Assembly: GCA_965231015.1 (NCBI GenBank)
Contig: OZ246408.1
Location: forward strand, 620,115 to 684,114
Reading direction: 5' to 3'
DNA: 64,000 nucleotides
Source of the DNA: an uncultured Gammaproteobacteria bacterium
Lineage (GTDB): Bacteria; Patescibacteriota; Patescibacteriia; UBA9934; CAZDDW01
Within the stretch, counting starts at the first letter, position 1; the number at the start of each line of letters is the position of its first letter. Below are positions 2,151 to 64,000 of the stretch, one piece after another. Under the pieces are notes generated by a model. The model did not search any database and had not been told where the DNA came from. It saw only the letters and a list, made by a program, of their open reading frames with translations. A program made the position numbers and the translations under genes.

Positions 2151-2179
2151 TTGATCCTGTCAAGTAAACACGCTAAAAT
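2151..2179 (+). promoter_or_regulatory. Sigma70-like promoter TTGATC-17-TAAAAT upstream of the 2297 gene
   Basis: TTGATC at 2151-2156, an exact 17-nt spacer, and TAAAAT at 2174-2179. A ~110-nt leader follows, ending in a GGAGGAGG SD site. Confidence 0.35.
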
Positions 2180-2296
2180 ATCTTTAGCTCTTTTATATCT
2201 CGTACAGTTACAGCATTGCAAAGATTGTTTGATTTGACTTCAACGGGTACAGACCAAGAATTCTCTCCATTGGGGTTTTTAGGAGGAGGTATTACT

Positions 2297-2581
2297 ATGA
2301 CAAAGAAAAAGAACGGCAAGTTTGGTCGTCACAGTACAGTAAGTAAAGAAGTAAAAAAGGTTGTCCGTAAATTGGTAAAGCTTGAGGGAGTTACCAAGCT
2401 CGAGCTAAACCGATTCCACCCGGTTCGTCACTCGCGAACCAACGGCGAAGTCGTGCTCAAGGAAGAGCACAGCAAAGGAATGAAACTCTTGGTTTACCAC
2501 TCGGACGGTATCCAAGAAATTTACCTGGTGTTTGAAGAGGAATCAAAAGACGACGTAACTGAGTACGTCGCCGCAATGTAA
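2297..2581 (+). CDS. Hypothetical small basic protein (94 aa) with strong Shine-Dalgarno
   Basis: ATG at 2297 preceded by AGGAGGAGG with a 7-nt spacer; the track ORF 2216..2581 starts upstream in the same frame. The protein is MTKKKNGKFGRHSTVSKEVKK... with no family recognised. GC is slightly above background. Confidence 0.45.
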   Translation: MTKKKNGKFGRHSTVSKEVKKVVRKLVKLEGVTKLELNRFHPVRHSRTNGEVVLKEEHSKGMKLLVYHSDGIQEIYLVFEEESKDDVTEYVAAM

Positions 2582-2643
2582 CTATCTAGTATTATAAATT
2601 AAGGTTGTAGTCTTAGATATATTACGTACGGGATTGAGCGTGC

Positions 2644-2681
2644 CCCTGGGATCTACCGGATTCCAGGGGTATTATAATTTT
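2644..2681 (+). terminator. Intrinsic terminator (GC hairpin plus T/A tract)
   Basis: CCCCTGG (2644-2650) pairs with CCAGGGG (2663-2669) around a 12-nt loop, followed by TATTATAATTTT. It overlaps the murC stop codon. Confidence 0.5.
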
Positions 2682-4056: not shown

Positions 4057-4103
4057 ATTTAAAAAGAAAAGGCCGGACCCCTGTAGAATCCGCGCCGCAC
4101 AGG
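4057..4103 (-). terminator. Possible terminator of GC-rich cassette A
   Basis: After the stop at 4108-4110 the minus strand forms CCUGU...ACAGG (plus 4079-4103), then GGUCCGGCC and UUUUCUUUUU (plus A-tract 4061-4070). Confidence 0.35.
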
Positions 4104-4107
4104 TTCA

Positions 4108-5112
4108 CTAGACCTGTTGTCGAACGTGTTGAATCGAGTGGTCGTTAATCAGGTTGTAAGTCAAACGACCGTCCGGAGCCAGACGCAAGTTCCAGATCCG
4201 ATCACCCTGATCTAACTGCTGGTATTTTTCGCCAGAACAGACCAGAATCGACTGTCCATTGACCTTCTGAACGTAATACACACAGTGATTGTGGAAGACC
4301 GCACTCGTCCACTCATCATCCGAGCCGTCGAGCGCTACCGCCGCATCTTCGCTCACAAACCATTCCTGCGTTTCGATACAGAAATTGTCGTTTTCGAAGT
4401 GTTCGATGAAACGAATGGCCGGTTGATTGTCGACCCAGTGAACACGGAACTGCTCGAAACGAGCCAGCACCATCCGCTCGACCGAGCAACCGGGCAAGTA
4501 AAAGGGTGGTTTGCCATTCTGTGGACCAGGCCTGATCACTACTGCTTCCTTGAGCGTTGGAACTGTCGTCTTCCTTGTACACGGTTGTTTGGGCACATAC
4601 ACCAGAATGATACAGGAACCATCCGGAGATGCCGCAGCCAAACGAACGTAGCCGGGAATTGAACCGAGTTCAGCAAACTGCCACCCGTCCGTTGGTGTGA
4701 GACAGATTGGCATCTCCTCGCCGGCCAGTTGCAGGTTGTAAAGAGTAGTCACCTGACGACCATGGTTTGGCTCCACAGTGTCTTCGTACTTGTTGATCAG
4801 ACGACCATCCGGATCCAAGATGAAGACGTAGCGCCGTGGTGCAGTGAATTCAGGCGGATCGTATACTCCGCTGACCATCACTCGATCACGACTGACTGAT
4901 AAAACCTCATAATCACCGTGAAAATGATCCGGCAGATCCACCCAACCACTAGTTGTGGCAGTGTGGTAAAGCCGGTTGGTTCGCCTTGTGACCTTTACCA
5001 CGGCCGCATGCTCGCCGGAAAGTGAGGCTCCTATAAGTCCGTTCTCGTGAAGGTCTCCAGGATCGGAATTACTCGGAAGATCAACAATATTCTTTAAAGA
5101 TCTTGTCGACAT
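4108..5112 (-). CDS. Hypothetical protein (~334 aa) encoded by GC-rich cassette A; no recognisable family
   Basis: The region is visibly GC-richer (~52%) than its flanks. Start is placed at the ATG (MSTRSLKNIVDL...) preceded by GGGGAAG plus 4 nt. The longer track ORF, from 5178, begins upstream of the predicted promoter. The protein has DPDGRL/APDGRL repeat motifs. Confidence 0.5.
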   Translation of the reverse strand: MSTRSLKNIVDLPSNSDPGDLHENGLIGASLSGEHAAVVKVTRRTNRLYHTATTSGWVDLPDHFHGDYEVLSVSRDRVMVSGVYDPPEFTAPRRYVFILDPDGRLINKYEDTVEPNHGRQVTTLYNLQLAGEEMPICLTPTDGWQFAELGSIPGYVRLAAASPDGSCIILVYVPKQPCTRKTTVPTLKEAVVIRPGPQNGKPPFYLPGCSVERMVLARFEQFRVHWVDNQPAIRFIEHFENDNFCIETQEWFVSEDAAVALDGSDDEWTSAVFHNHCVYYVQKVNGQSILVCSGEKYQQLDQGDRIWNLRLAPDGRLTYNLINDHSIQHVRQQV

Positions 5113-5156
5113 CGTTCTTCCCCGTGGTTCCCCCCGCGGGTTAACGTCGAAATAGC

Positions 5157-5185
5157 ACCTTAAACGAAAAATACGCATCTGTCAA
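5157..5185 (-). promoter_or_regulatory. Sigma70-like promoter TTGACA-17-TAAGGT driving cassette A
   Basis: On the minus strand, TTGACA is the reverse complement of 5180-5185, the spacer is exactly 17 nt, and TAAGGT is the reverse complement of 5157-5162. The ATG lies ~45 nt downstream. Confidence 0.35.
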
Positions 5186-5242: not shown

Positions 5243-6487
5243 ATGAAAACAATACGTCAATTTGATTCAAAGATAGCCGATTCCCTTGAAAGAGAGCTTA
5301 ATCGACAACGTGAAGGATTGGAGATGATTCCTTCAGAAAATTTTGTTTCCGAGGCCGTTCTTGAAGCCCTTGGGTCTGTTGCTACGAATAAGTACGCCGA
5401 GGGTCTGCCCAAAAAACGTTACTACGGAGGGTGTGAATTCATCGATGAAATTGAAAACCTGGCTCGCCAGCGAGCTAAAAAACTCTTTCAAGCAGAACGA
5501 GTAAATGTGCAACCACTTTCCGGAGCACCGGCCAACGTGGCGGCTTACTCGGCTCTTATGAATCCGGGTGACACTATTTTAGGAATGGATCTGGCTCACG
5601 GTGGGCACCTGACGCATGGCTCACCAACCACCTTCATGTCCAACATCTATCACTTTGTTCGATACACCACAACCAAGACGGGTGAAATTGATTATGACGA
5701 TATTGAGGCCAAGGCTCGTGAACATAAACCAAGGGTTATTCTGGTCGGTTATTCAGCATATTCAAGAGAAATTGATTACGAGCGAATTAAAAAACTGGCG
5801 GATGAAGTCGGTGCCTACACCATGGCTGACATGGCTCACATTGCCGGGCTAATTGCGGCTGGCGAAATGAGCAATCCGGTGCCGATTTTCGACGTGGTGA
5901 CCACAACTACTCATAAAACCTTACGAGGACCACGTGGTGGGATGATTATGTGCAAGGATGAACATTTTACTGCCATCAACAAGGCTGTATTCCCTGGACT
6001 ACAAGGCGGACCACACGAAAACAATATTGCTGCCAAGGCCATTGCGTTTAAAGAAGCTATGGAACCCGCATTCAAAGATTATGCACACCAGATCAAAGCC
6101 AATGCCAAGGTTTTAGAAACTGAGTTCAAGGCTCGAGATTATAAGTTGTGTTTTGGTGGGACTGACAACCATCTCTTGCTGATCGATGTCACACCAAAAA
6201 ACGTCACCGGACAGATCGCTGAAAGTGCACTCGATAAAGCCGGCATCACCGTTAACAAAAACATGATCCCTAATGACGAACGAGCCCCAATGGATCCTTC
6301 CGGCATCAGACTGGGAACTCCAGCGCTCACCACTCGCGGCATGAAAGAAGACGAAATGAAACAGATTGCCGGTTGGATTGATGAGGCCATTACCAATCAC
6401 GACAAAGAAACAAAACTCGCGGAGATTCGCGAGGCAGTAAAACAATTAACTAGCCAGTTCCCACTTTATCCGGAACTGAAATATTAA
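5243..6487 (+). CDS. glyA: Serine hydroxymethyltransferase
   Basis: 414 aa, MKTIRQFDSKIADSLERELNRQREGLEMIPSENF...TTTTHKTLRGPRGGMI, containing the PLP-lysine motif. This is textbook SHMT. Confidence 0.95.
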   Translation: MKTIRQFDSKIADSLERELNRQREGLEMIPSENFVSEAVLEALGSVATNKYAEGLPKKRYYGGCEFIDEIENLARQRAKKLFQAERVNVQPLSGAPANVAAYSALMNPGDTILGMDLAHGGHLTHGSPTTFMSNIYHFVRYTTTKTGEIDYDDIEAKAREHKPRVILVGYSAYSREIDYERIKKLADEVGAYTMADMAHIAGLIAAGEMSNPVPIFDVVTTTTHKTLRGPRGGMIMCKDEHFTAINKAVFPGLQGGPHENNIAAKAIAFKEAMEPAFKDYAHQIKANAKVLETEFKARDYKLCFGGTDNHLLLIDVTPKNVTGQIAESALDKAGITVNKNMIPNDERAPMDPSGIRLGTPALTTRGMKEDEMKQIAGWIDEAITNHDKETKLAEIREAVKQLTSQFPLYPELKY

Positions 6488-6491
6488 AAAT

Positions 6492-6950
6492 ATGAAAAAG
6501 CTTTTGATTATCCCCCTTGCATTTGTGTTATTGATGGGAGCCGGATGCAACCAGCCACCCGTCGAGACCACAAATGAACTTGAGTCTGAAACCATATCTG
6601 AGACTGAAACCGCAGTACCCGACTACGTTGGTACATGGTTTAGAGAACAAATCATTGTTGACGGGGTTCCTGAAGTCGGTCCGGTTGATGCTAATCTTGT
6701 ATTCGAAGAAGACGGTAAGGGGTCGTTTCATTCAGAAACTGATCTCTGTTATGTAGACGGAACTGTCGAAGTTACCGGAAATTCAGTTCACATGTTAACT
6801 GATGAGTCTGACTGTCCAGCTGAAGCGGTTGCCATGACGTCTGACATTACATATGAATATGAGGTTAGTGAGGACGGGCAAACCTACACCCACACGACGG
6901 TATTTTCAGGAGTGACTATCACAGAGGTTTACTCACGAGTGTCTGAATAA
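6492..6950 (+). CDS. Hypothetical lipoprotein (152 aa)
   Basis: Signal peptide with lipobox: MKKLLIIPLAFVLLMGAGC. The acidic mature part has no recognisable family. The start is 4 nt after the glyA stop. Confidence 0.6.
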   Translation: MKKLLIIPLAFVLLMGAGCNQPPVETTNELESETISETETAVPDYVGTWFREQIIVDGVPEVGPVDANLVFEEDGKGSFHSETDLCYVDGTVEVTGNSVHMLTDESDCPAEAVAMTSDITYEYEVSEDGQTYTHTTVFSGVTITEVYSRVSE

Positions 6951-6962
6951 AAGACAATAAAA

Positions 6963-6993
6963 ACCACCCGGTAAATTCCGGGTGGTTTTTTTA
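6963..6993. terminator. Bidirectional intrinsic terminator between convergent genes
   Basis: Perfect hairpin ACCACCCGG-TAAATT-CCGGGTGGT followed by TTTTTTT, lying between the 6950 stop (+) and the 7000 stop (-). Confidence 0.65.
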
Positions 6994-6999
6994 ATTTAC

Positions 7000-8691
7000 T
7001 TATTTCTTTTGTTGAACTGGTTTGGCTGGTTTTTCTCCATTCTTGGGTCTATCATCATAGTGTTTAACTCTTCGTAAAACCAGCCAACGCAACAGAATAA
7101 TGATCAAGGCCGCGATAATTCCCCAACAGTAGTTCACAAGAATTGCAATGACTACCGGAATTAAGAAGGCCAACACCGGAAGCATGTAATACACCACCAT
7201 TCGCTTTTCATTCAAACGTTTCTTTTCGTTATAAATCCGTCGTCGGAACCATGAAACGGTTGATAGAATGACCCCAACAATCAAAATCCATAACAACCAA
7301 GGGCAAATCCAGGAACACACGCCTGGTAAAAACATGCAGGCACAACATGTTCCACTGGTGGCCGCGGCTGATTTATCATCGTCATCAACTGGAGCAGTAA
7401 CACTGGAACAACCCCCACAGTCATCCGGACAGTTTACACAAGTCTCATCCGGCTGACACACATCATCACCACACGTATCCGCACACTCACCACAATCTGC
7501 GGAGCAACTCTCACAATTTTCCCCACATTCTAAACGACATTCTCCGTCACCACAATACTTATCGCGGCACGGGTCACATTCACCACAATCATCCGGACAA
7601 TTTTCGCACCCCTCTCCACACTGACTATCACAAACCCCGTCTCCGCAATCACTATCACACTGATCCGGATCTAAGCATTCCCCACAATCACCCGGACAAT
7701 TTTCACACCCTTCGTCACATTCAGGTACACACATTCCATCACCGCAGGTTGAATCGTCACACGGACTTGGCTCATAACACTCACCACAGTCATCAGGACA
7801 CGTGTCACAAAATTCGTCGCACTCTTCCTGACACACTCCATCACCACAATCTACTTCAGCACACGGATCCTCTTCACACTCTCCACAGTCCCATGGACAA
7901 TTGTAGCAGGTCTCGTCACACTCCGGCTGGCAAACACCGTCACCGCAGTCTACAAAATCACACTCACCATGTGGCTCATCACCCGGACACTCACCACAAT
8001 CACCCGGACAGTTTTCACAGGTCTCGTCACACTCCGGCTGGCAAACACCGTCACCGCAGTCTACAAAATCACACTCACCGTGCGGCTCACCACCAGGGTC
8101 ATTAGTGGTTTCCTGACAATTGGCTCGAACTTCGGCTTCAGTTTGGTAAACACTGATTGCTAAACCGGTTCCGGGCACACACATAGGTTCTGAAACATAA
8201 TCTATTCCATACCAGCCAGTTGACGGATCATGATAACAACACCAAACCGGCCCCCCGGTTTGATCCCCCGGACACTCACCACAATCATCCGGACAAGAAT
8301 CACACGCCTCATCACATTCCTCATCACAAACCCCGTCTCCGCAGGTTACTTCACCACATGGGTCATCACCGGGACACTCTCCACAATCTTCCGGACACCA
8401 GGTGCATTCTTCGTCACACTCGATGTCACATACACCATCACCACACACAACCCCGTCACAAGGACCGGGTTCCTCCTCCTCGTGTTGGCAACATTCAGGA
8501 AAAGCAATACAACACTCATCCTGACAAGCCGTGTCTCCCTCACAACCAATATAACAATCATCAAAATATGGTTGTGACTCTCCACACTCGGAATACCCAT
8601 TCATGGCCTCAGCCGGAGCTACACCCGGCAAAAATAAAAACAGGCCAAGAATCAGTCCTGCTAATGCAGATAACCTAAAATACTTTGGCAT
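7000..8691 (-). CDS. Cysteine-rich tandem-repeat membrane protein (563 aa)
   Basis: Signal peptide MPKYFRLSALAGLILGLFLFLPGVAPAEA. At least 13 repeats follow, of the form CGDGVCxxECDExCxxCPxDCGEC with 6 Cys in ~27-37 aa. A poly-D linker and 2-3 C-terminal TM helices with a basic tail complete the protein. Confidence 0.7.
   Translation of the reverse strand: MPKYFRLSALAGLILGLFLFLPGVAPAEAMNGYSECGESQPYFDDCYIGCEGDTACQDECCIAFPECCQHEEEEPGPCDGVVCGDGVCDIECDEECTWCPEDCGECPGDDPCGEVTCGDGVCDEECDEACDSCPDDCGECPGDQTGGPVWCCYHDPSTGWYGIDYVSEPMCVPGTGLAISVYQTEAEVRANCQETTNDPGGEPHGECDFVDCGDGVCQPECDETCENCPGDCGECPGDEPHGECDFVDCGDGVCQPECDETCYNCPWDCGECEEDPCAEVDCGDGVCQEECDEFCDTCPDDCGECYEPSPCDDSTCGDGMCVPECDEGCENCPGDCGECLDPDQCDSDCGDGVCDSQCGEGCENCPDDCGECDPCRDKYCGDGECRLECGENCESCSADCGECADTCGDDVCQPDETCVNCPDDCGGCSSVTAPVDDDDKSAAATSGTCCACMFLPGVCSWICPWLLWILIVGVILSTVSWFRRRIYNEKKRLNEKRMVVYYMLPVLAFLIPVVIAILVNYCWGIIAALIIILLRWLVLRRVKHYDDRPKNGEKPAKPVQQKK
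7909..8079 (-). repeat. Near-perfect 111-bp tandem duplication inside the Cys-rich gene
   Basis: A 60-bp core GGTCTCGTCACACTCCGGCTGGCAAACACCGTCACCGCAGTCTACAAAATCACACTCACC occurs at 7909-7968 and again at 8020-8079, a 111-bp period (37 aa). The protein shows the duplicated unit CGECPGDEPHGECDFVDCGDGVCQPECDETC. Confidence 0.7.
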
Positions 8692-8769
8692 AAGCCTTTT
8701 TATTATTTAATTTTAGAAATTATTATGTATATTTTACAGGAAAAAGTCATGTTTTTCAACTAAAACTGT

Positions 8770-8803
8770 TGATAAAAATGACTGCTGAGGAGCCCCTCAA
8801 CAG
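8770..8803 (-). terminator. Putative terminator after small GC-rich gene
   Basis: Minus strand: the hairpin GCTGTTGAGG/CCTCAGCAG has one mismatch and a 4-nt loop, then UCAUUUUUAUC. It follows the stop at 8805-8807. Confidence 0.4.
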
Positions 8804-8804
8804 C

Positions 8805-9059
8805 CTAGTAATCAGGGTCATATGACCGTAGTTCATGTTTCACCCGACGCAGGCGCGCGCTTAGAATTGCCCGTTCAGCTCGCGCTTTTTTGAGTTGTTG
8901 GTTGAGACTGATCCTGTCGATCAACCGAGGATTACGACTTCGCTCCAACTTCTGGAGATCTCGTTGTATGCCGCGAATCTCCGCGTCTTTGTTGCCGATT
9001 TTTCGTTGAAGCGAAGTCACTTCGGTTTTTACAACCTTGCGCTCCGCTTGCTTGCCCAA
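8805..9059 (-). CDS. Small basic coiled-coil protein (84 aa) in a mildly GC-rich cassette
   Basis: Very strong SD AGGAGGGAGGTG, a 5-nt spacer, then a TTG start. The protein is (M)GKQAERKVVKTEVTSLQRKIGNKDAEIRGIQRDLQKLERSRNPRLID..., with heptad-like periodicity and no family recognised. Confidence 0.45.
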   Translation of the reverse strand: MGKQAERKVVKTEVTSLQRKIGNKDAEIRGIQRDLQKLERSRNPRLIDRISLNQQLKKARAERAILSARLRRVKHELRSYDPDY

Positions 9060-9105
9060 GCATCACCTCCCTCCTATTTTACGTACTTTTACCGTACCAT
9101 AATTC

Positions 9106-9134
9106 TTGACTTTTTGGCCAATTTAAGGTATGGT
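9106..9134 (+). promoter_or_regulatory. Sigma70-like promoter TTGACT-17-TATGGT for folD (near-leaderless)
   Basis: TTGACT at 9106-9111, a 17-nt spacer, and TATGGT at 9129-9134. The folD ATG at 9145 is only ~10 nt from the -10 element and has no SD. Confidence 0.35.
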
Positions 9135-9144
9135 TTGGCTTGTT

Positions 9145-9966
9145 ATGGCAAAAATCATTGATGGAAAAAATTTGGCCTCCGAGATTCGCTCGGAAATAAA
9201 AACACGAATTGCCTCTAGTGGGATCCGTCCGGGTCTGGCCGTTCTTTTAGTTGGTTCTGATCCAGCGTCTCATTGTTATGTCGGAATCAAAGAAAAAGCC
9301 TGCGCTGAAGTCGGAATCAATTCAGAAAAATATCTATATTTTGCCAGTGAACCTGAAGAAAAACTAATTGAAAAAATAAAGGAACTGAACTCTCGAAATG
9401 ATATCAACGGAATCCTGGTTCAACTCCCATTACCTAATCAAAACAAGGACAAAGTCATTGCCGCCATTGATCCGGCTAAAGATGTTGATGGTTTTCACCC
9501 TGATAATTTATCTAAACTGGATTCAGACGAACCACACATGATTTCCCCGGTCGCCCTTGGGGTTATGAAGATGATTGAATCAACCGGTCGACCGATTACC
9601 AAGTCACGAGCTGTATTTATTGGGTCCAATCTTTTTGCCAAACCAATCGCCCACTTACTCCAAGAGCACGACGTTGAACTCGAGACAGTTGATCGAAATT
9701 CACCAAATCTTGAGCTGAAAACCCAAAAGGCAGATATTCTAATTGTCGCGGCCGGCCGGCCGAACCTTATCAAGGGCAACATGCTAAAACCGGGAGCAAT
9801 CGTAATTGATATCGGCACTACGAAAGTTGACGGCAGGATTGTCGGAGATGTTGAGTTTAGCTCTGCTGAGCCGGTTGCTGGCTGGCTGAGCCCGGTTCCT
9901 GGTGGGGTTGGACCAATGACCGTGGCTTATCTACTGGTAAACGTCCTGAAAGCGACTAAAAAATAA
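9145..9966 (+). CDS. folD: Bifunctional methylenetetrahydrofolate dehydrogenase/cyclohydrolase
   Basis: MAKIIDGKNLASEIRSEIKTRIAS...ILVQLPLP...GGVGPMTVAYLL, the canonical FolD domains. The start is placed at the ATG at 9145; the track ORF begins upstream in frame. Confidence 0.9.
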   Translation: MAKIIDGKNLASEIRSEIKTRIASSGIRPGLAVLLVGSDPASHCYVGIKEKACAEVGINSEKYLYFASEPEEKLIEKIKELNSRNDINGILVQLPLPNQNKDKVIAAIDPAKDVDGFHPDNLSKLDSDEPHMISPVALGVMKMIESTGRPITKSRAVFIGSNLFAKPIAHLLQEHDVELETVDRNSPNLELKTQKADILIVAAGRPNLIKGNMLKPGAIVIDIGTTKVDGRIVGDVEFSSAEPVAGWLSPVPGGVGPMTVAYLLVNVLKATKK

Positions 9967-11818: not shown

Positions 11819-12247
11819 TTATTCAAATTTTATATAACACTTATTTTCCAGATAACACCGCACTCCGCGACGCGAAGCATCAAAGTGAGGTTCTGGCAAT
11901 TCTTTCGGATCAACCCAAAGCCACTCTTCACACTTTTCCGGTTCCATTATCTTGAGTTCCTTTTTGTAGCTTCGAGCCAATAACACGACCGAGATGTAAT
12001 GCAAACCACATTCTTTGTGTGTTTCAAGGTTATTTGTTACCGCAATCACTTCCGGGTTTTCAATATCTAAATCTGTCTCCTCTTTGATTTCCCGAACCGC
12101 CCCATCTTCAAACTTTTCCCCCATTTCCAGGTGACCCCCAGGAATCGAATAATACGGCGCGTGAGCATTAATCCGCTTCCCTATCAAAATATTCCCCTCC
12201 TCATTCACAATTATCACTCCTAAGCCAACTTTGGGACACTCAGACAT
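11819..12247 (-). CDS. NUDIX hydrolase (MutT-like)
   Basis: 142 aa containing the Nudix box GGHLEMGEKFEDGAVREIKEETDL. Confidence 0.8.
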   Translation of the reverse strand: MSECPKVGLGVIIVNEEGNILIGKRINAHAPYYSIPGGHLEMGEKFEDGAVREIKEETDLDIENPEVIAVTNNLETHKECGLHYISVVLLARSYKKELKIMEPEKCEEWLWVDPKELPEPHFDASRRGVRCYLENKCYIKFE

Positions 12248-12289
12248 TTTTTTACATTAATTGTGGATATTATAGCACAAAAATCGTGG

Positions 12290-12720
12290 AGGTATAACTG
12301 ACTTAAAACAGAGGCCGTGTTAAAGATCAGTCATCGAAAAAAAACTGAAGGAGAATAGCATGAACGAACAACGGTAAAATCCTTCTGAACAACTGACCGC
12401 CAACCCATGGGCGATGCCGTTTCGTTTCGCGATCACGAGTGTATGCCACGCTGTCTGTGTGTGGGCCTGCATCAATCTCGGTTTTCGGAACCATGGTTGG
12501 TGATTCCTATTGGCCGGCGTCGCTGCATCCTTCGTGGGTCGTGCATACGTCAGCCATCGAGCAACACAACTGATCACCGAGCTCAAGGCCACACCACCCA
12601 GCCCCCCCTACGTCATCGGCACCTTCTGCTCAATCGATCTATTGCCTTCTCAGAGTAGATCTGTCTCGACCACACCCGATCCACCCCTACTCCGGGGAGT
12701 TATGTTTCTGTAGAAGAATA
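12290..12720. other. GC-rich ~430-bp element B with ambiguous coding potential (candidate structured ncRNA or decayed insertion)
   Basis: GC is markedly above the flanks. All three track ORFs (12320..12592 -, 12407..12658 +, 12510..12713 +) overlap and look non-protein-like. A long-range inverted repeat CCAACCCATGG (~12401) / CCATGGTTGG (~12491) is present. A tiny SD-led ORF, GAAGGAGAAtagcATGAACGAACAACGGTAA, sits at the 5' end. Confidence 0.3.
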
Positions 12721-12883
12721 TTTTACTTGTTAATTTAGTTAAATGAACAATTAATTCAATAACAAAAAATCCTCTGTGATTATTTTAATAATCGAATTTG
12801 GGGAGTCTTATTTTCACTGATTTGACCACAAAAATACGTGTATGTCAAGTGGAAAACCGTCATTTCTAGCCCTGTTGATAAGT

Positions 12884-12950
12884 TTGTCCTTCTAGGGTAA
12901 GATAAACGGGCTAATATGCCCGGCAGGACAACTTTGAATTTGTGTTTGTC
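12884..12950 (+). terminator. Nested hairpin with T-rich tail (terminator-like or small RNA element) upstream of dnaB
   Basis: TTGTCCT (12884-12890) pairs with AGGACAA (12925-12931), enclosing an inner hairpin CGGGC-TAATAT-GCCCG. CTTTGAATTTGTGTTTG follows. Confidence 0.3.
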
Positions 12951-13044
12951 GTGCAAAATTAGACGTCCGCCAAGAAAATTTAAAAATTTGTTGGTTTTAC
13001 GCGATCTGCTTAACTAATTCTAACGATATAAATTCAAAGCTGTA

Positions 13045-15479: not shown

Positions 15480-15508
15480 TTGACACGACCTACTTTATTT
15501 GATAAGAA
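15480..15508 (+). promoter_or_regulatory. Consensus sigma70 promoter TTGACA-17-TAAGAA of GC-rich cassette C
   Basis: TTGACA at 15480-15485, an exact 17-nt spacer, and TAAGAA at 15503-15508. SD GAGGAGGAGG at 15510-15519 and ATG at 15525 follow. Confidence 0.5.
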
Positions 15509-15524
15509 CGAGGAGGAGGTGCCC

Positions 15525-15869: not shown

Positions 15870-15887
15870 TGAGGAAGGACTGGGTCA

Positions 15888-16178: not shown

Positions 16179-16214
16179 CCAGAGAGAGTCATCAAGCAGC
16201 GTATACAAATTCCG

Positions 16215-16252
16215 AGCGGAACCCACCCAGGATCCCGCTCTTTTTTTATTTT
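16215..16252 (+). terminator. Intrinsic terminator of cassette C
   Basis: GAGCGG (16215-16220) pairs with CCGCTC (16235-16240), followed by TTTTTTTATTTT. The minus-strand neighbour's TAA stop falls inside the T-tract. Confidence 0.65.
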
Positions 16253-28462: not shown

Positions 28463-30090
<1,628 letters not shown>

Positions 30091-37365: not shown

Positions 37366-37371
37366 CCGGCA

Positions 37372-40621: not shown

Positions 40622-40623
40622 CT

Positions 40624-41578: not shown

Positions 41579-41588
41579 CTCCCTTTTT

Positions 41589-42095: not shown

Positions 42096-42097
42096 AA

Positions 42098-57579: not shown

Positions 57580-59148
57580 CTATTTAATCGGCAAGCTAAA
57601 CCAGAAGGTCGAACCTTTCCCTTCTTCACTCTCAAACCCGATTTTTCCCTTATGAGCTTTGATAAACGATTGGGTAATAAACAAACCTAAACCAACCCCA
57701 TCCTGGTTCATGACCTGGGCGTTAGAAGCCCGAAAAAAGCGTTTGAAAATATTTTTCTGTTCAGACTTGGGAATTCCAATTCCCTGGTCTTTTACCTTGA
57801 CCACCACCTGTTTTTTCTCAACCCCCAACTCTACCCACACAGTCCCCCCATCCGCTGTGTAACGAATGGCATTGTCTAGCAATATTTCTATGGTGCACCG
57901 GATCTTCTCGGAATCAAAATCCATTAAATCCAATTCCTTACCAGGGCCTTTATATTTAATAACGATATTATTATTTTGGGCTTTAGGCCGAAATAACTCT
58001 ACAATTGATTTAACCAAACTCTCCATATCCGTTCCCACGGTTTCAAGAGTCAAATGCCCTCGCTCAATATCAAGCGCTGTATTCATGTTGCCAATCAACC
58101 GTAGAACATCTTCTTCACTATCTAAGGCACGGCGTATGAATGCTTCATGTTCCGGATTTAAAGCCCCGAATTGTCCGGAAAGCAAGGACTCCAGGTTCCA
58201 CCTGATTTCATTAAGAGGAGTTCTGGTGACATGGGTTAAGGCTGTGATAAAACGGGACTTTAAGACATCAAATTCTTTTTCTTTTTCTTCAGCCTGTTTT
58301 CGTTCCGTTATGTCCACCAGCGACGCCACCGACTGTTTAGTTCCCTCAATCATGGCCAAGTTGGCCAAAACATCATGAACCTTCCCATCCCGGTCAATAA
58401 ACTTAAACTCATAAACACTTGGGACAGAGCTCGGGTCAATCCGCCGCATCATGTGATACTTCAACATCATTGGCAAATACCGTTTCATGACAAAATTCGT
58501 CCATTTCTTTTTTCCCTCAATCTCGTTTTTTGAATACCCGGACACTTCACAAAACTTCTTATTGACATAAGAAATAGTTTGATTCTCTTCCACAATACAC
58601 GTAGCCGCACCAGTATTTTCCAATAACGTTTTATAACGTTGTTCACTTTGCTCCAGCTGATTTGTCTTTTGTTTACGAAGCGAAATATCCAGTGCTGTGA
58701 AAACCACCCCCCTGCTTCTATCTCCGGAATAGATATAAGCCGAGCTTAAAGAAACATCAATTATTTCTCCATTTTTCTTTTGCATCTGTGTTTCCACACG
58801 TCCCACTCCCTGCTCTTCGATTTCTTGATACTTAACCTTACCAACCCGATCATAAGCCGCCTTACTGGGATAAAGAATCCTGGCGTTTTTTCCTATGAGC
58901 TCCTTTTCTTCATACCCCAACATTTCACAAAAACGATCATTGACTTCCATAAGATTTCGTTTTTCATCAATTATCCCCATACCCACCGGCGAAGCTTTAA
59001 CAATACCCTGATATAACGCCTGTTGTTTGCTAAGTTCCTTTTTGGTTTGTTCCAACTGAAAATAGGCTGAACGAAGAAGCTCAACTTCAAACTGAAGGTT
59101 CTGACACTGCTTTAAAACGTCTTCTTTTGTCTTATTTTTATCAGCCAT
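57580..59148 (-). CDS. Cytoplasmic PAS-domain sensor histidine kinase
   Basis: 522 aa with no TM segment. It has a coiled-coil, two PAS domains, a HisKA H-box LTHVTRTPLNEI, and HATPase_c (GLGLFITQSFIKAHKGKIGFESEEGKGSTFWFSLP). Confidence 0.85.
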   Translation of the reverse strand: MADKNKTKEDVLKQCQNLQFEVELLRSAYFQLEQTKKELSKQQALYQGIVKASPVGMGIIDEKRNLMEVNDRFCEMLGYEEKELIGKNARILYPSKAAYDRVGKVKYQEIEEQGVGRVETQMQKKNGEIIDVSLSSAYIYSGDRSRGVVFTALDISLRKQKTNQLEQSEQRYKTLLENTGAATCIVEENQTISYVNKKFCEVSGYSKNEIEGKKKWTNFVMKRYLPMMLKYHMMRRIDPSSVPSVYEFKFIDRDGKVHDVLANLAMIEGTKQSVASLVDITERKQAEEKEKEFDVLKSRFITALTHVTRTPLNEIRWNLESLLSGQFGALNPEHEAFIRRALDSEEDVLRLIGNMNTALDIERGHLTLETVGTDMESLVKSIVELFRPKAQNNNIVIKYKGPGKELDLMDFDSEKIRCTIEILLDNAIRYTADGGTVWVELGVEKKQVVVKVKDQGIGIPKSEQKNIFKRFFRASNAQVMNQDGVGLGLFITQSFIKAHKGKIGFESEEGKGSTFWFSLPIK

Positions 59149-59150: not shown

Positions 59151-59516
59151 TTATTTGATAATTTTCTTGATTCTCTTTACTAAATCCTCTCGATCAAAAG
59201 GCTTAACAATATAATCAGAAACCCCCTGCTTTTTCATGACTTTTATTTTTTCCTCGTCTGCCTCTAAGACGGTTAGAAAAGCGATTCGTGCCGTGGAATT
59301 TCTTTCTTGAATCCTGGAAAGAAGTTCCCAGCCTGACATTTCCGGCATCATAATATCCAACAAAAACAGGTTGTAGGTATTATTTTTCATCTTCTTTAAA
59401 GCCTCGCTTCCACTGGTCGCTGAATCCACGACATAACCCTCTTGATCTAAAATTAAACGCACAACGTCCAATGTGTCCTGGTCATCATCAACGTGTAGAA
59501 TGGTTTTTCCTGGCAT
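59151..59516 (-). CDS. Stand-alone response-regulator receiver (CheY-like)
   Basis: 121 aa: ILHVDDDQDTLD...LFLLDIMMPEMSGWELL...YIVKPF. The phospho-acceptor Asp and conserved Lys are present, with no output domain. Confidence 0.85.
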   Translation of the reverse strand: MPGKTILHVDDDQDTLDVVRLILDQEGYVVDSATSGSEALKKMKNNTYNLFLLDIMMPEMSGWELLSRIQERNSTARIAFLTVLEADEEKIKVMKKQGVSDYIVKPFDREDLVKRIKKIIK

Positions 59517-59520
59517 ATTT

Positions 59521-62454
59521 TTAGTTAGGGAAATTAATCATTACATCCGTACCTTTGCCGCGACCTGAGCTTGTTAGACGAACGTCACCACCGTAGATTT
59601 GTACCAGACCTTTTACAATAGCCAAGCCCAGTCCGGTTCCTTCATATTTTCTGGCCGCACCAACACTGGCCTGATAAAAAGGTTCAAAGATTTTTTCTTG
59701 CTCTTTTTTAGTTAAACCGATTCCCTTATCTTTAACTGTAATTTCAGTTCCCTGCTTTGTTTTTTTGGCTGAAATAACAACTGCCCCGCCTGATTTATTA
59801 AACTTAATCGCGTTTTCGATTACCTCATCCAGTATTCTTTTTAAGAGTCCCGGATCTGCCTTAACCATTAACCCAGCCTTTACTCTGTTTTGAATAAATA
59901 TCTTTTTATCTTTGATCTGCTTTTCTTTTTCACCCAACACTTCTTGAACAGTTTTCAACAGAGCATGTTTGGTTTTTTTGATTTTAACCTGGCCACTCTG
60001 AATCTTGGTCATCATCAAAAAGTCACTAATCAAATTCCTTAAACGCTCCTCACCTCTTGCCACCATTAACAAAGCTTCTCGTTGTTGGTCTGACAAATCA
60101 CCAAACTCACCCTCTAGCAGTAGATCGGTTTGTAAACGAATCGGCACGAGTGGTGTATTTAATTCGTGGGCGGCCACTTGAATAAACTCATTCCGTACTC
60201 CCCTTGCCTCAACTAATTGTTCCGCCAATCTTTCCACGTGACTACGGTTATAATCCACCCCACGGTACCCAACCGGCTCCCCGGTCTCATCAACAATAGG
60301 TCTTCCATCAGTCACCAAATTAACCTCATGTCCGTCTTTGTGCAGATTGGTATTAGCAAAATCATTTATCGCTTCTTGCTTTTTAAAGGCGGCAAAAGCC
60401 AGCTCTTTTAGCTTCTTTCGTTCACCCGGTACAAAGAGATCATAAAAATGCTTTTTTCCAACTATCTCTTCCGGTTTATACCCTAAAATATCTTCTACGG
60501 CCGGACTTGAATACGTATACAACCCCTTCACATCAACCTCCCAGATCCATTCATGAGCGGTTTCAGCCACGTGCTCAAAACGGGCTTCAGCTTTTTTAGC
60601 ACGCCTAAAGGCGGCACTTTTCTCCGTGACATCAACCAGGGAGGCCACTGATTGTATGGTGCCTGGAATAAGTGAAATATCCAAACGGGCGGTTTTTTTG
60701 TCACCTTTTCGATTAACAAAATCAAACTCGTAAGAACTTGGTGGAGCAAGCCTTGTTCCGCTCTTACGTCGCGCTTCATGATACTTCTTCATCATCTGTA
60801 AAAACCTCTGATCAACAAACTTGGTCCAGCTCATTTTTCCCTCCACCTCTTCTTTAGAATAGCCGGTTAGTTCAGCGAACTTTTGGTTTGCTAAGGAAAT
60901 AATTGTATTAGGCTCAACAATACACATGGCCGTGGCCGCGTTGTCAATAATCGATCGATAATACTCTTCTTTCTTTTCAATCTCCTCTGTACGTTCCTCA
61001 ACTGTTTGTTCAAGTTCTTCTAAGATCTGCTCTCGCTCCTTGCCTAAATTAACTCGCTCGGTTACGTTCGAGGCCATCAACATCAAACTGCGCTCATATT
61101 TTCCGTTTTGTTCAGTCACCACCGGCACCCCACGGTAGTGGTGCCACTGAATATCTGTGCCATCGAGCGGCTCAAACTGTAACTCAACCTCAATACTATT
61201 TCCTTCTAATCCCTGTTTGATAAATTTATCAAGTCCGGACTCTTTATAAGCACGGATCTGAAAAACATTTTTGTTCATTAGTGCTAAACGGCTTTCCACA
61301 CCAACCAGCTCTGACATTTTAGAATTAAGTGACGTGATAATCCCGTTTTTATCGAGTGTCATGATCCCAAGAGGAGCGTTTTCAAATAACAATGAAAGGT
61401 TTCCTCTGGTTGAACGCAGTGTTTGCACCAGATCATTAAAAACTTTCGCTAAAACACCAAACTCATCCACGGCTTTGACTTTTAGTTCTGTGTCCAGGTC
61501 CCCGCTTTCCAATTCCTTCATGGCCTGACTGAATTTACGCATGGTTCTAATCTTGACCGAAACAACAAAACTGGCTAGAAATACCATTATAATGGCGGTG
61601 ATTAAAACAATGCCGACGGTGCTATTCTTGATGAAATTTGAGCCGAAATAAAATTCTTGTTTTTCCTGGACCCCTACAATATACCAATTAGGTAAACCGG
61701 TGTGGCCGTTCATGTGTTCCACCGGCAAAGCTATGGTGACATAACTATCGTTTCCTTCATACGCTTCAGCCGGACTTAAAATTTCATCAGTTCCAGCCCC
61801 GGTAACTACGCGCCCAAAAACATCTTTTAAAAATACAAATCCGGTTTCTCCTACGGAAATTTTTTCTGAGAAACGCCAAATATCTTCTACGTCCACCTGA
61901 AAAACCAGAACCTCAATAACCGCATCGGAATCGTTTTTAATCGGCACCAGATAATTCACCACTTCTTTTTGTGGCCTTGGGATGACCTGTACCGGAGAAA
62001 AAACCGGTGATCCATCAAGAGCGGTCTTAAAACTCTCTGATTCGGACCAGGTGGTTCGAAAATTGTACCGTGAGGCGGCCAGCACCGTACCGTTTGTATC
62101 GAGTAAAATAATATCGTCATAAACATCAAAAAGCTCGTTATACTCTTTTAGAAGACTTTCTCTTTCAGCGGTTGATAGGGTCATTTTTTGCAGATTTGCA
62201 TCACTCACTAATACGATTGAGTTGTGAACAACCTCTTCAATCACCAGAGCCACAATCTGCCCGGCTTGCGTGGCAGCTTGATTTAACGCTTCAAAACTCT
62301 GTTTTTCTTGATATTTGCTGATGCGTGGAATAACAAAACCAAAAAACGAAACGGATAAAATACTCAACAATAACAACCCCCCTAATCCCGCCTGATAGGC
62401 TAAGGGGAACTTTGGCTTTAATTTATTTTTATTTCTTTCCTCCTTTTGGGTCAT
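59521..62454 (-). CDS. Transmembrane multi-PAS sensor histidine kinase (977 aa) with large extracytoplasmic sensor domain
   Basis: TM1 LAYQAGLGGLLLLSILSVSFFGFVI, a ~250-aa periplasmic (Cache-like) region, TM2 VGIVLITAIIMVFLASFVVSV, HAMP, three PAS domains, H-box AAHELNTPLVPI, and HATPase_c GTGLGLAIVKGLVQIYGG. Confidence 0.85.
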   Translation of the reverse strand: MTQKEERNKNKLKPKFPLAYQAGLGGLLLLSILSVSFFGFVIPRISKYQEKQSFEALNQAATQAGQIVALVIEEVVHNSIVLVSDANLQKMTLSTAERESLLKEYNELFDVYDDIILLDTNGTVLAASRYNFRTTWSESESFKTALDGSPVFSPVQVIPRPQKEVVNYLVPIKNDSDAVIEVLVFQVDVEDIWRFSEKISVGETGFVFLKDVFGRVVTGAGTDEILSPAEAYEGNDSYVTIALPVEHMNGHTGLPNWYIVGVQEKQEFYFGSNFIKNSTVGIVLITAIIMVFLASFVVSVKIRTMRKFSQAMKELESGDLDTELKVKAVDEFGVLAKVFNDLVQTLRSTRGNLSLLFENAPLGIMTLDKNGIITSLNSKMSELVGVESRLALMNKNVFQIRAYKESGLDKFIKQGLEGNSIEVELQFEPLDGTDIQWHHYRGVPVVTEQNGKYERSLMLMASNVTERVNLGKEREQILEELEQTVEERTEEIEKKEEYYRSIIDNAATAMCIVEPNTIISLANQKFAELTGYSKEEVEGKMSWTKFVDQRFLQMMKKYHEARRKSGTRLAPPSSYEFDFVNRKGDKKTARLDISLIPGTIQSVASLVDVTEKSAAFRRAKKAEARFEHVAETAHEWIWEVDVKGLYTYSSPAVEDILGYKPEEIVGKKHFYDLFVPGERKKLKELAFAAFKKQEAINDFANTNLHKDGHEVNLVTDGRPIVDETGEPVGYRGVDYNRSHVERLAEQLVEARGVRNEFIQVAAHELNTPLVPIRLQTDLLLEGEFGDLSDQQREALLMVARGEERLRNLISDFLMMTKIQSGQVKIKKTKHALLKTVQEVLGEKEKQIKDKKIFIQNRVKAGLMVKADPGLLKRILDEVIENAIKFNKSGGAVVISAKKTKQGTEITVKDKGIGLTKKEQEKIFEPFYQASVGAARKYEGTGLGLAIVKGLVQIYGGDVRLTSSGRGKGTDVMINFPN

Positions 62455-62457
62455 AAT

Positions 62458-63520
62458 TTAGACCTGACTTTGGTCTAAGAATAAAAGTAATCGTGACCAA
62501 GTCTGAACGTATAAACTATCCGCTACAATCGCGTCTCCCCAACTGACCAACTTTTCCCACTGGCTCTCGCTCGGATATATAAAAGGGTTGTTTAACCGAT
62601 CTTCGTCCACTAAACACGCGTCATAAATAGCCTGGTTTGGGTTGGCGTAATAGGTATAATTAGTGACCGCGGCGTGCACATCAGGGCGCAAGACATAATT
62701 GATAAACGCTTCTGCGGTTTGTTGGCGAAGCGTGCCGGCCGACACGGCCATGACGTCGTAAAAAGCCATGGCTCCACTGTCCGTAATCAAGACTTTCAAG
62801 TTTGGATTTGCTTCTTTGGCCACTACCGCCTCGCTATTATAAAGATGACCGATCCAAATTTCTTCTTCAATTAATTGATCCCGGATATCAATTGGATCCT
62901 CTACAGTTGCGCCGTTGGTAATTATTTTCTCCAGAAAATCTTCTACTTCACTAAAAGCTTCCGGATCACTTTCACTGACTTCATAACCATTATTAGAGAG
63001 CTACCCTGTTTTGAAAACATTGGTCTGATAAATCCTGCCAACCATCCAGACCAGAAACATATTTGGTGTTGTAGACAAGCGGAGTAAAACCATGGTCATA
63101 AAACATGGAATATCGACTACCTGAGTCATAATCTGGATTATGAAGACACTCCATGAGATGGTTGAAATTTGGAACGTTATCATGGTTAACCCTGTTTACT
63201 AAACGATAATCAATCAGTTCAGATAGTAATCTTCCCGAAGGGAAAATAACGTCATATGCTCCCGGGTCGTTTTGTAGCACAGTAATGATTTGATCTTCGT
63301 CTTCAAAAGTCTCAACAATTAAATCAACCGAATACTCTTCTTCAAAGACCTGAATGACCTCTTCCTGAATAAATTCTTCCCAGGTGTAAATTTTCAGTTC
63401 AGAATCAAGACCAATGATTTGGTGCTGGGTTTGATAAGACTTAACTAACATCCAAGTTAAAAGAGCCAGAGAAATTACAAATACGGAAATTAAAAACCTA
63501 AAAAAGACACGCTTGTTCAT
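62458..63520 (-). pseudogene. PotD/PotF-like polyamine-type periplasmic binding protein, interrupted by a +1 frameshift near 62995
   Basis: Track ORFs 62993..63520 (signal peptide, LKIYTWEEF..., YDVIFPSG..., TPLVYNT) and 62458..62823 (FINYVLRPDVHAAV) are the N and C halves of a single SBP. The C-terminal frame is open all the way from 62997. Joining the halves needs a +1 shift at CTC-TAA-T. Confidence 0.6.
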
Positions 63521-63625
63521 AGAATCACGTTATTTGTTTAAATTATATCATGTTTACGATTTCAAAACTAAAAAATTTGACCAAGCTTTAAATAAAGTTA
63601 TAAGATTGTTTTCTGGAGGTGAGAG

Positions 63626-64000
63626 ATGGTGCCCCCGAGAAGGCAAGAGTGGGATCGCTACATGGTCTGTTACGATGTGGTTGTGGCTCGACTGTGGCCA
63701 TACCGACAGCTGATCAATCTGGTGCTTGATGCCCTCGCTGTGAAGCCGGGTCAGCGAATCCTGGATGCCGGTTGTGGTACCGGGGTGTTGCTCAAGACCG
63801 TGGCCGACCTCGATTTCAAGGTTGACCTCATCGGCATTGATGCCCAGACCTCGGCTACAGAGCGAGCAGAAGACAAGCTCGGTGATGCCGCGCACATCGT
63901 ACGGGAAAATCTGAATCAACCCAACTGGATCAACGGCATTCTCGAGTCCGTTGACACCATGGTATCCGTCAACGCACTTTACATCCTGGAGGATCCGTAC
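63626..64000 (+). CDS. Class I SAM-dependent methyltransferase, N-terminal part (GC-rich cassette, runs off the window end)
   Basis: SD TGGAGGTGAGAG directly before the ATG at 63626. MVPPRRQEWDRYMVCYDVVVARLWPYRQLINLVLDALAVKPGQRILDAGCGTGVLLKTVADLDFKVDLIGIDAQTS... contains motif I LDAGCGTG. The region is visibly GC-rich. It is missed by the ORF track because there is no stop inside the window. Confidence 0.65.
   Translation, partial: MVPPRRQEWDRYMVCYDVVVARLWPYRQLINLVLDALAVKPGQRILDAGCGTGVLLKTVADLDFKVDLIGIDAQTSATERAEDKLGDAAHIVRENLNQPNWINGILESVDTMVSVNALYILEDPY

Follow-up and report, generated by a model that had tools for sequence, protein, structure and literature searches.

A 64,000-nucleotide (nt) stretch of the genome of an uncultured bacterium (contig OZ246408.1 of assembly GCA_965231015.1, positions 620,115–684,114 of the forward strand; here called the window) carries between its housekeeping genes a series of small units, here called cassettes, whose orphan genes mostly start behind strong Shine–Dalgarno (SD) sequences that the core genes do not use. 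We think it rather likely that these cassettes are lineage-restricted accessory-gene islets, horizontally exchanged, which would act as autonomous, SD-dependent units within an SD-independent core genome. The dichotomy of composition and SD use, positional orthology, constraint, conserved signals, discordant divergence, a recent exchange, a decayed copy and a presence/absence difference are all observed directly. The window has a GC content of 44.8% and is tightly packed with housekeeping genes, most of them on the minus strand: secA, hpf, murB, murC, glyA, folD and an amino-acid permease (perm); dnaB, ybaB, recR, a CCA/poly(A) polymerase, rplU, a GT4 transferase and a clpB-like gene; and tgt, ftsL, rsmH, mraZ, uvrC, uvrA and uvrB. 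Further genes encode a giant protein of 3566 amino acids (aa) and several histidine kinases and response regulators, and the sole RNA gene is a tRNA-Gln (Rfam, at gathering threshold). The best matches of UvrB, with at most 63% identity among the matches listed from species-representative genomes, are metagenome-assembled genomes of Magasanikbacteria, Uhrbacteria and Parcubacteria, and we therefore assign the organism to the Patescibacteria (candidate phyla radiation, CPR). Genomes of this group are small and strongly syntenic, and few mobile elements are commonly ascribed to them.

The cassettes with a recognisable gene are listed here with their predicted signals (GC3 is the GC content at third codon positions; energies in brackets are those of the duplex of SD and anti-SD):

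2234–2672, plus strand: unit C1, with a promoter-like site at 2234–2261, the SD AGGAGGAGG at 2281–2289 (−13.5 kcal/mol), a coding sequence at 2297–2581 (94 aa, GC3 0.54) and a terminator hairpin at 2640–2672.
4074–5185, minus strand: unit C2, with a −35 box TTGACA at 5185–5180, a −10 box TAAGGT at 5162–5157, a G-rich SD-like stretch in the leader at 5125–5117, a coding sequence at 5112–4108 (334 aa, an all-beta repeat protein, GC3 0.55) and a terminator at 4092–4074.
8780–9075, minus strand: unit B, with the SD AGGAGGGAGG at 9075–9066 (−15.7 kcal/mol), a TTG start at 9059, a coding sequence at 9059–8805 (84 aa, coiled-coil-like, GC3 0.52) and a terminator at 8805–8780.
15480–16252, plus strand: a two-gene unit, with a −35 box TTGACA at 15480–15485, a −10 box TAAGAA at 15503–15508, the SD GAGGAGGAGG at 15510–15519 (−15.7 kcal/mol) and a coding sequence at 15525–15869 (114 aa, GC3 0.73).
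Within 15480–16252, plus strand: the second gene of this unit, with the SD GAGGAAGGA (−8.5 kcal/mol), a coding sequence at 15888–16178 (96 aa, GC3 0.66) and a hairpin with T-run at about 16214–16252.
32213–32478, minus strand: a small unit directly after uvrC, with the SD GGAGAGGAGAGA at 32478–32466 and a terminator at 32235–32213.
33848–34207, plus strand: the unit of a 108-aa Cys-containing protein, with a weak SD TGGAGA (−6.4 kcal/mol), a coding sequence at 33858–34184 (GC3 0.50) and a terminator at 34183–34198 followed by a T-run.
36750–37959, plus strand: a tandem paralogue cassette, with the SD GGAGG at 36775–36779, par1 at 36784–37365 (193 aa, GC3 0.66) and par2, which has no SD of its own, at 37372–37959 (195 aa, GC3 0.46).
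63577–64000, plus strand, cut by the window end: the start of a methyltransferase island, with a −35 box TTGACC at 63577–63582, a −10 box TAAGAT at 63601–63606, the SD GGAGG at 63615–63619 (−13.6 kcal/mol) and a coding sequence from 63626 (GC3 0.66).

The small unit after uvrC can be read in two ways, either as the called 74-aa ORF (open reading frame) at 32453–32229 with a GTG start (GC3 0.57), or as a 24-aa CxxC mini-ORF from the ATG at 32464, followed by a 53-aa ORF.

For the comparison of start sites we used ten cassette ORFs, with their starts placed behind the SD sites, and a core set of 46 genes. A GGAGG-type SD is present on nine of the ten cassette ORFs, and a comparable site on one of the 46 core genes. 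The median energy of the anti-SD duplex is −9.1 kcal/mol at the cassette starts as compared to −0.6 kcal/mol at the core starts, only one of which reaches −8 kcal/mol or lower (p = 8.9e-6). With 45 of 46 starts weaker than this value, the core looks as an SD-independent core should. Indeed, each intergenic combination of GGAGG and start codon within the window is part of a cassette ORF. An initial annotation of this DNA had claimed that strong GGAGG-type sites are found on the cassettes and are lacking from the core, and this is largely borne out; SD use is not common genome-wide. For the relatives, we relied on hand-checked loci, because an automated survey of their SD and GC3 with naive ORF calling was too noisy (p = 0.13 even on the window).

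The core starts are ATG in 98% of the cases and are preceded by A/T-rich, G-poor sequence, with a T at position −1 in 78%. This context is conserved, A-rich at −3 to −5 and with T at −1 (for example at 5243, 4033 and 13045, and in the relatives L098–L121; L-numbers denote individual loci retrieved from relatives and assemblies). Additionally, −10-like boxes lie only about 8–12 nt before the ATG of operon-first genes (glyA, murC and dnaB; in relatives murC, glyA and perm). Together, these two features suggest leaderless mRNAs, or mRNAs with very short leaders, across this CPR clade. The genes murC, murB, glyA, folD and hpf are SD-less also in about 23 relatives that span 29% to 66% GC, so that the missing SD is common to the clade and does not simply follow from a low GC content. 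The SD cores of the cassettes are conserved between species, which is most simply explained if the SDs are functional and the ribosome would thus have retained its anti-SD. The anti-SD motif is reported to be lost in roughly half of Parcubacteria (PMC9297842).

Textbook promoters and hairpin/T-tract terminators had been described for several cassettes as well, and sequences of both kinds are present. Consensus-like promoters stand upstream of the genes at 5112 (TTGACA-17-TAAGGT), 15525 (TTGACA-17-TAAGAA), 63626 (TTGACC-18-TAAGAT) and 2297 (TTGACT-16-AAGAAT), and a hairpin with a T-tract follows six units. These signals, which are predicted from the sequence, accompany the deviant GC and are conserved in the sibling species described below. 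Over the whole window, promoter-like sites are not above the shuffled expectation. The terminator scan covered three stretches of the window, with 40001–44000 left out; hairpins exceed the shuffled sequences about 1.6- to 1.9-fold in two of them (34 vs 20.7 ± 5.1 and 34 vs 18.0 ± 4.1), and the third is within noise (23 vs 17.9 ± 4.6). Between the convergent genes 6492–6950 and 7000–8691, a GC-rich palindrome of 13 bp without mismatches (6959–6990), flanked by a T-run on either side, is a predicted bidirectional intrinsic terminator of native genes, so that strong terminators are not confined to the cassettes.

We then turn to composition. Ten segments of the window had been listed with GC contents of 50–57%; GC, ranked against same-length windows of the 64-kb stretch, is raised in seven of them, and the range itself holds for six. 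The values are highest for 4057–5185 (51.5%, 99.5th percentile), 15480–16252 (52.5%, 98.9th), 36740–37959 (51.3%, 99.6th) and 63600–64000 (54.9%, 99.5th). The rise is moderate for 12290–12720 (51.3%, 95.6th), 8770–9075 (51.0%, 92.5th) and 33830–34212 (49.6%, 88.7th), and GC is not raised in 2151–2681 (41.6%), 29640–30090 (42.1%) and 32229–32480 (47.6%). The segment 29640–30090, listed before among the cassettes, has to be dropped: it contains no credible gene (GC3 0.41, no SD) and consists of the ftsL terminator and spacer. Rfam scans, including an E-value scan of 29560–32500, gave nothing besides the tRNA-Gln. GC bumps are also found inside core genes. The one at 7600–8400 is explained by the gene at 7000–8691 (minus strand), which is not a cassette and encodes a 563-aa protein without Pfam match that contains at least 7–8 tandem Cys-rich repeats of about 33 aa (period of 99–102 nt).

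At the level of genes the signal is stronger and much cleaner. The GC3 values of the ten cassette ORFs, which run from 0.46 to 0.73, compare to a core mean of 0.42 (standard deviation 0.05, 46 genes; Mann–Whitney p = 2.7e-6). The tetranucleotide distance of the pooled cassettes to the core is 0.321, as against a null of 0.159 ± 0.022 (maximum 0.260; z = 7.3) obtained from 1000 size-matched draws of core segments, none of which reached the observed distance. The cassette genes are hence compositionally distinct, as had been supposed, and host-atypical in GC3, codon and k-mer usage in the manner expected of horizontal islets. The excess sits mostly at third positions, GC1 and GC2 being raised only slightly, and NNC codons are strongly favoured over NNT: from core to cassette, Phe TTC rises from 0.23 to 0.71, Ile ATC from 0.25 to 0.70 and Tyr TAC from 0.35 to 0.65. 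In the strand-matched comparison G3 and C3 are both higher in the cassettes. Because GC3 is then raised on both strands, replication-strand bias as the sole cause was rejected.

The preference for NNC over NNT is a translational-selection signature in many bacteria, and it is here that the codon shift is strongest. One may thus ask if the cassettes are indigenous genes whose SDs, promoters, terminators and C-ending codons are kept by selection for a distinct regime, which could be high or conditional expression, or a need for SDs in more structured, GC-richer 5′ regions. The conservation of SDs and promoters between species, the high GC3 that persists in both sibling lineages across saturated synonymous divergence (dS), the recurrence of the pattern with unrelated genes in the relative L099 and a methyltransferase–GNAT pair that stands in plasmid-like order beside a kinase of native composition (all described below) would be in agreement with this idea. 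We nevertheless regard it as unlikely. The one native gene present whose high expression is clear, rplU, is SD-less and has the lowest GC3 (0.28), hpf, secA and clpB are of native composition and SD-less as well, and G-ending codons rise too when strands are matched. Furthermore, selection on indigenous genes fails to explain the ten-fold lower dS of par1 and par2, the alleles of 48–54% identity beside core genes of 82–94% identity, and a cassette copy with a GC3 of 0.84 beside a murC with 0.36.

The reading as exchanged islets draws on the positions of the cassettes. A metagenome scan with MurC furnished 35 loci. The order perm-folD-glyA-murC-murB-hpf-secA is kept in about 30 metagenomic relatives, across a range of MurC identity of 43–53%. 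In many of these, murC/murB or glyA/murC are spaced by only about 10–50 bp, and in others the same junctions are filled with 0.4–5 kb of unrelated sequence. The uvrB-uvrA-uvrC group is tight in L006 and variably filled elsewhere. The cassettes thus occupy junctions that were probably tight ancestrally and that are hot spots of gene turnover. As the core genes adjoin each other in deeper relatives, the units are insertions at core-gene junctions, exactly as the initial annotation had proposed. Their absence from the homologous position, which is expected of horizontal islets, is seen in the deeper relatives; in addition, the sibling lacks one unit, and another survives in the window only in decayed form.

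The phenomenon extends outside the window. About 4–5 kb beyond the window start, L084 contains SD-led ORFs at 11895–12197 (plus strand) and 12386–12730 (minus strand), with GC3 values of 0.57 and 0.65, which sit between native NUDIX and LOG-family genes. In L099 (MurC 49% identical), whose core genes have GC3 values of 0.25–0.37 and no SD, five unrelated orphan ORFs surround glyA (5697–9715, GC3 0.43–0.61); four of the five have a clear GGAGG, GGAAGG or GAGGAG and one a weak GAAAGGG, and hairpin/T-run terminators are visible behind two units. In the glyA/murC gap of L095/L097 there are again unrelated orphans, whose ORFs have a higher GC3 and SD-like sites. Other CPR classes (L002, L004, L009, L036) served as the negative control, and there most genes in the uvr gaps have native GC3 and no SD. 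The combination of SD and raised GC3 can hence not be generic to genes in such gaps.

The age of the units can be judged from a sibling species (Logan runs SRR28370465-67), of which two genomic regions were compared. Core proteins of the sibling are 73–98% identical and dS ranges from 0.36 to >2, at or near saturation for most genes. Five units have orthologues in identical slots, namely C1 (85% identity), C2 (79–80%), the 108-aa gene (80%), par1 (96%) and par2 (93%). Homologues in the same syntenic positions had been named beforehand as a possible argument against foreign units; they are present in the sibling for these five, and deeper relatives do not have them. The ratio of non-synonymous to synonymous divergence (dN/dS) is 0.08–0.26 for the cassettes, which is comparable to or slightly higher than the 0.02–0.13 of the core, with 0.11 for C1, 0.08 for C2 (between glyA and murC) and 0.13 for the 108-aa gene (between uvrC and uvrA). 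C2 and the 108-aa gene show a core-like dS of 1.0–1.6. In the sibling's C1, a GGAGGT is kept although the flanks have diverged, and the changes in the terminator stem compensate each other; C2 has kept its entire promoter, leader and terminator, and the 108-aa gene its leader and terminator. Purifying selection together with these conserved signals argues for maintained, expressed genes, and we read the units as old residents for the most part and not as recent jumps.

Turnover and exchange are seen as well. The dS of par1 and par2 toward the sibling is 0.127 and 0.119, as compared to 2.07 for the flanking uvrA and 1.54 for uvrB. Both genes lie in a block of 92–100% nucleotide identity (about 36755–38100), and no second long stretch of such identity was seen in the roughly 21 kb that could be aligned. 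The block starts sharply about 30 nt upstream of par1 and runs out gradually some 140 bp inside uvrB, at the 3′ end of that gene. This cassette must have been exchanged recently between lineages. The two paralogues share 30% identity over 102 aa (E = 4e-18). The stop of par2 abuts the convergent uvrB stop at 37957–37962 with zero spacer and no terminator, so that cassette transcripts would run antisense into uvrB.

Divergence out of step with the flanking core genes was found for three cassette families, as expected of horizontal islets; it rests on pairwise comparisons. Among three lineages that are roughly equidistant by MurC (81.5–84.5%), C2 is 80% identical in one pair and 48% in the other two. 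The par1 protein has 96% identity to its counterpart in one lineage and 54% to that in another; the latter lineage has a single copy, in the same slot, next to fragments of UvrA and UvrB with 94% and 85% identity. The copies of a third family, of 165 aa, are 44% identical, and the third-lineage copy has a GC3 of 0.84 beside a murC with 0.36. The unit after uvrC is missing in the sibling, where about 130 nt of unrelated sequence stand instead, and the adjacent mraZ leader is about 95% identical. This leader (31880–32180) is a non-coding stretch of about 300 nt upstream of mraZ in surroundings of about 80% identity to the sibling; it contains repeated AAAGTGG(G/A) boxes, which are probably the MraZ operator array for the dcw cluster.

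Two further places of the window bear on decay:

1940–2165, minus strand: the remnant of a cassette gene, which has kept a TTGACA, a degraded SD and, in frameshifted form, about 200 nt from the 5′ part of the coding sequence; about 400 nt of the 3′ part of the gene are deleted.
12380–12700, no strand assigned: island D, a non-coding stretch with a high GC of about 57% that lies in the divergent spacer of NUDIX and dnaB.

The sibling carries the intact 165-aa gene between C1 and murB (L082 5855–6352; GC 57.6%, GC3 0.73), with TTGACA-17-TATCCT, the SD GAGGAGG and a terminator. In tblastn, its protein matches the window at 2063–1953 (E = 2.5e-8), and the DNA alignment reveals the deletion. Islands B and D had both been considered as possible RNAs. 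Unit B, with its SD, its GC3 with codon periodicity and an exact ORF that is called in both NCBI and Logan, is clearly a predicted protein gene and not an RNA. For island D an RNA is unsupported: there is no Rfam match near the gathering score (an E-value scan of 12200–13100 gave far-sub-threshold matches only, all of them outside the island), and fold z-scores of +0.53 and +0.50 on the two strands reveal no excess structure. It has codon-position periodicity in no frame, stops in every frame, and no tblastx match in all retrieved loci. Island D may be a fully decayed cassette.

The recent recombinational exchange of one cassette, and a GC excess which is mostly third-position and affects G3 and C3 alike, are also what GC-biased gene conversion at recombination hot spots would produce; the SD would then be an independent trait of leadered monocistronic genes. 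Biased gene conversion could contribute to GC3. That it is the cause of the pattern seems improbable to us, because par2 lies in the exchanged block but has a near-native GC3 (0.46), because C2 and the 108-aa gene have a core-like dS yet raised GC3, and because mraZ, the other low-dS region, has a native GC3 (0.47). Gene conversion, furthermore, neither makes SD sites nor explains orphan proteins.

The cassettes are compact, self-contained and placed at gene boundaries, and different, unrelated genes are found in the same junctions across lineages. These properties would also suit self-mobile elements that insert site-specifically in spacers, such as integron-type cassettes, miniature transposons or phage morons, but we consider this explanation very improbable. 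The window and its flanks contain no gene for an integrase, a transposase or a phage protein. The repeat search detected neither a repeat family common to the units nor bracketing inverted or direct repeats, and thus none of the terminal inverted repeats, target-site duplications and multiple copies that characterise transposons and miniature inverted-repeat transposable elements. Where compared (three units), the families are found only in their own slot, and the exchanged block extends into the uvrB coding sequence, as predicted by homologous recombination. Searches of all cassette proteins with Pfam, PHROGs and PADLOC gave only the methyltransferase and, for C1, a weak DUF2103 match just under the Pfam cut-off; the 114-aa and 96-aa proteins have no Pfam, PHROG, PADLOC or viral matches. 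The phage and plasmid search that had been suggested returned little: when phage records were searched by tblastn with C2 and with eleven cassette proteins joined together, a single weak match came up, that of the methyltransferase, and in plasmids there were matches to the methyltransferase and its GNAT partner only. Four scans of IMG/VR viral contigs (with C2 and par1 profiles, C1 and the 114-aa protein) found no relatives, and a PDB sequence search gave the methyltransferase only. Judged by their sequences, the units are not self-mobile elements. From the earlier description as foreign or mobile, self-contained units we thus keep self-containment, atypical composition, turnover and exchange, and give up the mobile element, because integrase, repeats and phage homology are lacking and most units are old.

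A comparison with known systems leads to the same picture. In their predicted architecture the cassettes resemble phage morons, which have their own promoter, ORF and terminator, a deviant GC and an exact placement between two conserved genes for which they are dispensable. Here, however, the replicon is a bacterial chromosome, the neighbours are glyA, murC, murB, uvrABC, recR and dnaB, and phage genes and PHROG matches are absent. Integron cassettes share the small single-ORF format, the predominance of orphans and the variable gene pool. Integron cassettes are, however, promoterless ORFs in an array beside intI that is served by a common Pc promoter. The units here are in contrast dispersed over 64 kb with promoter-like sites of their own, there are no attC-like common repeats and no integrase in the window or flanks, and the 3′ hairpins, in contrast to attC sites, are unrelated in sequence and followed by T-tracts.

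As had been stated, the products are orphans, with the methyltransferase and its GNAT partner as the exception. They are lineage-restricted: in 5.8 billion proteins C2 has 3 homologues, to which a profile search added one remote match over the full length, and par1 has 2 relatives. The AF2 model of C2 has a pLDDT of 54 and Foldseek gave weak beta-propeller matches only (TM about 0.2); because of this low model confidence and the weak fold matches we claim no function for it. The AlphaFold model of par1 is helical, again at low confidence (pLDDT 41). Seven cassette ORFs that were checked are called with their exact starts as proteins in NCBI and Logan, among them those at 15525 and 15888, which form singleton clusters, and the eighth, the 334-aa C2, has a 100%-identical match.

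Sharp compositional switches within a few hundred bases could also arise in an assembly or binning artefact, in which contigs are chimeras of two organisms. We assign this a next to negligible probability. The same junctions occur in independent assemblies (SRR7048221, SRR7048224, SRR7048225) and in a contig of >1 Mb (1,002,985 bp), and the sibling junctions are identical in contigs of three further aligned runs. Cassette proteins are moreover listed from both NCBI and Logan, and the units have core genes on both sides within single ORF-dense contigs.

The methyltransferase island deserves a closer description. Its first gene encodes a class I S-adenosylmethionine-dependent methyltransferase with Pfam families, and the full gene, seen in L090, has 238 aa. 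Next comes an SD-led gene of the LuxI-type/GNAT kind (221 aa, GC3 0.61; its PF00765 score of 29.6 bits exceeds the cut-off), which has a separate terminator (L090 8327–9895). Past this gene, L090 has a histidine kinase and a response regulator of native composition. A similar methyltransferase–GNAT pair (27% aa identity) is found on Sulfitobacter plasmids, which speaks for a foreign affinity of this recognisable family, and the order methyltransferase–GNAT–histidine kinase is identical on a Sulfitobacter plasmid. Because of this shared order, the set may be an acyl-signal module in a CPR bacterium. A cluster of dCache/HAMP/PAS histidine kinases and response regulators lies on the minus strand of the window at 59521–62454, 57580–59148 and 59151–59516. 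Its 977-aa ORF encodes a sensor kinase and not UvrA, whose orthologue is at 34207–36723. Inside the giant 3566-aa ORF (42098–52798, minus strand), units of about 900 nt are repeated, and close to the C-terminus the sequence is acidic and of low complexity; this ORF evolves fast, its C-terminal part being only about 50% identical to that of the sibling.

Several points weigh against the reading as horizontally exchanged islets. We found no donor lineage, and the cassette proteins are essentially without homologues beyond close relatives, a distribution which fits fast-evolving, lineage-specific genes as well as horizontal gene transfer. Neither mobility genes nor repeats are present in the window and its flanks. 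GC3 remains high in both sibling lineages despite saturated dS, and this asks for a very GC-rich source, or for maintenance by selection or biased gene conversion. The islet pair of methyltransferase and GNAT beside a kinase of native composition, in plasmid-like order, hints that a difference in composition need not equal a difference in origin. The comparison with the sibling covers, in two genomic regions of this one species, the remnant, C1, C2, the two units beside uvrC and the par1/par2 cassette. Finally, the 3′ end of the 16S RNA was sought in the window and all retrieved loci and not found, so that the state of the anti-SD is deduced indirectly.

With these points taken into account, we still favour the exchanged islets, and propose the following mechanism. 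Each islet would consist of one or two genes with a sigma-70-type promoter, a leader of about 25–45 nt, a GGAGG-type SD located 4–8 nt before the start, an ORF rich in G/C-ending and especially C-ending codons, and usually an intrinsic terminator at the end. The islets would sit in junctions of conserved core operons, whose genes would be translated without SD from A/T-rich or possibly leaderless starts. They would have entered the clade horizontally from an SD-using, GC-richer gene pool and would persist as functional genes under purifying selection. Units would be lost by deletion, and alleles would be replaced or exchanged between related lineages, for which homologous recombination in the adjoining core genes is the probable route. 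The foreign origin, the actual transcription, the SD-dependent translation and the route of recombination are what we infer here.

Short, lineage-restricted genes with atypical codon and k-mer usage that lie between syntenic core genes and differ in presence and absence are known as genomic islets and ORFans, and in these respects our units are alike. ORFans are usually AT-richer than their host. The units here are instead GC-richer, they carry an SD that the host's genes do not use, and several are old, selectively kept and equipped with conserved signals. In Bacteroidota the anti-SD is sequestered and rpsU keeps an SD. The cassette genome resembles such SD-independent regimes in its SD-less core with A/U-rich start contexts and in the strong SD on a small minority of genes, but this minority consists here of accessory orphans of deviant composition and not of a ribosomal autoregulatory gene. 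The novelty therefore lies in the use of SDs by accessory genes within a genome, and a clade, whose core lacks them; compositional islets and ORFans as such are known, and a new kind of mobile element is not revealed.

One may speculate further, although this more far-reaching idea is tentative and we hold it as somewhat doubtful, that a family-level CPR clade would use two tiers of expression. The core would be SD-less with leaderless mRNAs or short A/U-rich leaders, and beside it would exist an SD-dependent, GC-rich pool of orphans, packaged as units of their own promoter, SD, ORF and terminator, which would pass from species to species by homologous recombination at fixed junctions of the core. 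If this were true, the SD would be a selectable handle for separate translation or regulation of the accessory pool, which could include host-interaction genes.

How CPR bacteria acquire lineage-specific functions, and how their unusual ribosomes choose start sites, is poorly understood. The about 46 housekeeping genes without SD and the roughly dozen orphans with conserved SD and different codon usage provide here a clean internal contrast. If this contrast holds genome-wide, SD and GC3 together would be a simple sequence marker of the flexible gene pool, and the organism would be a natural system in which SD-dependent and SD-independent initiation coexist on one ribosome. It would also furnish a shortlist of candidates for niche and host interaction, including the pair of LuxI-type synthase and methyltransferase.

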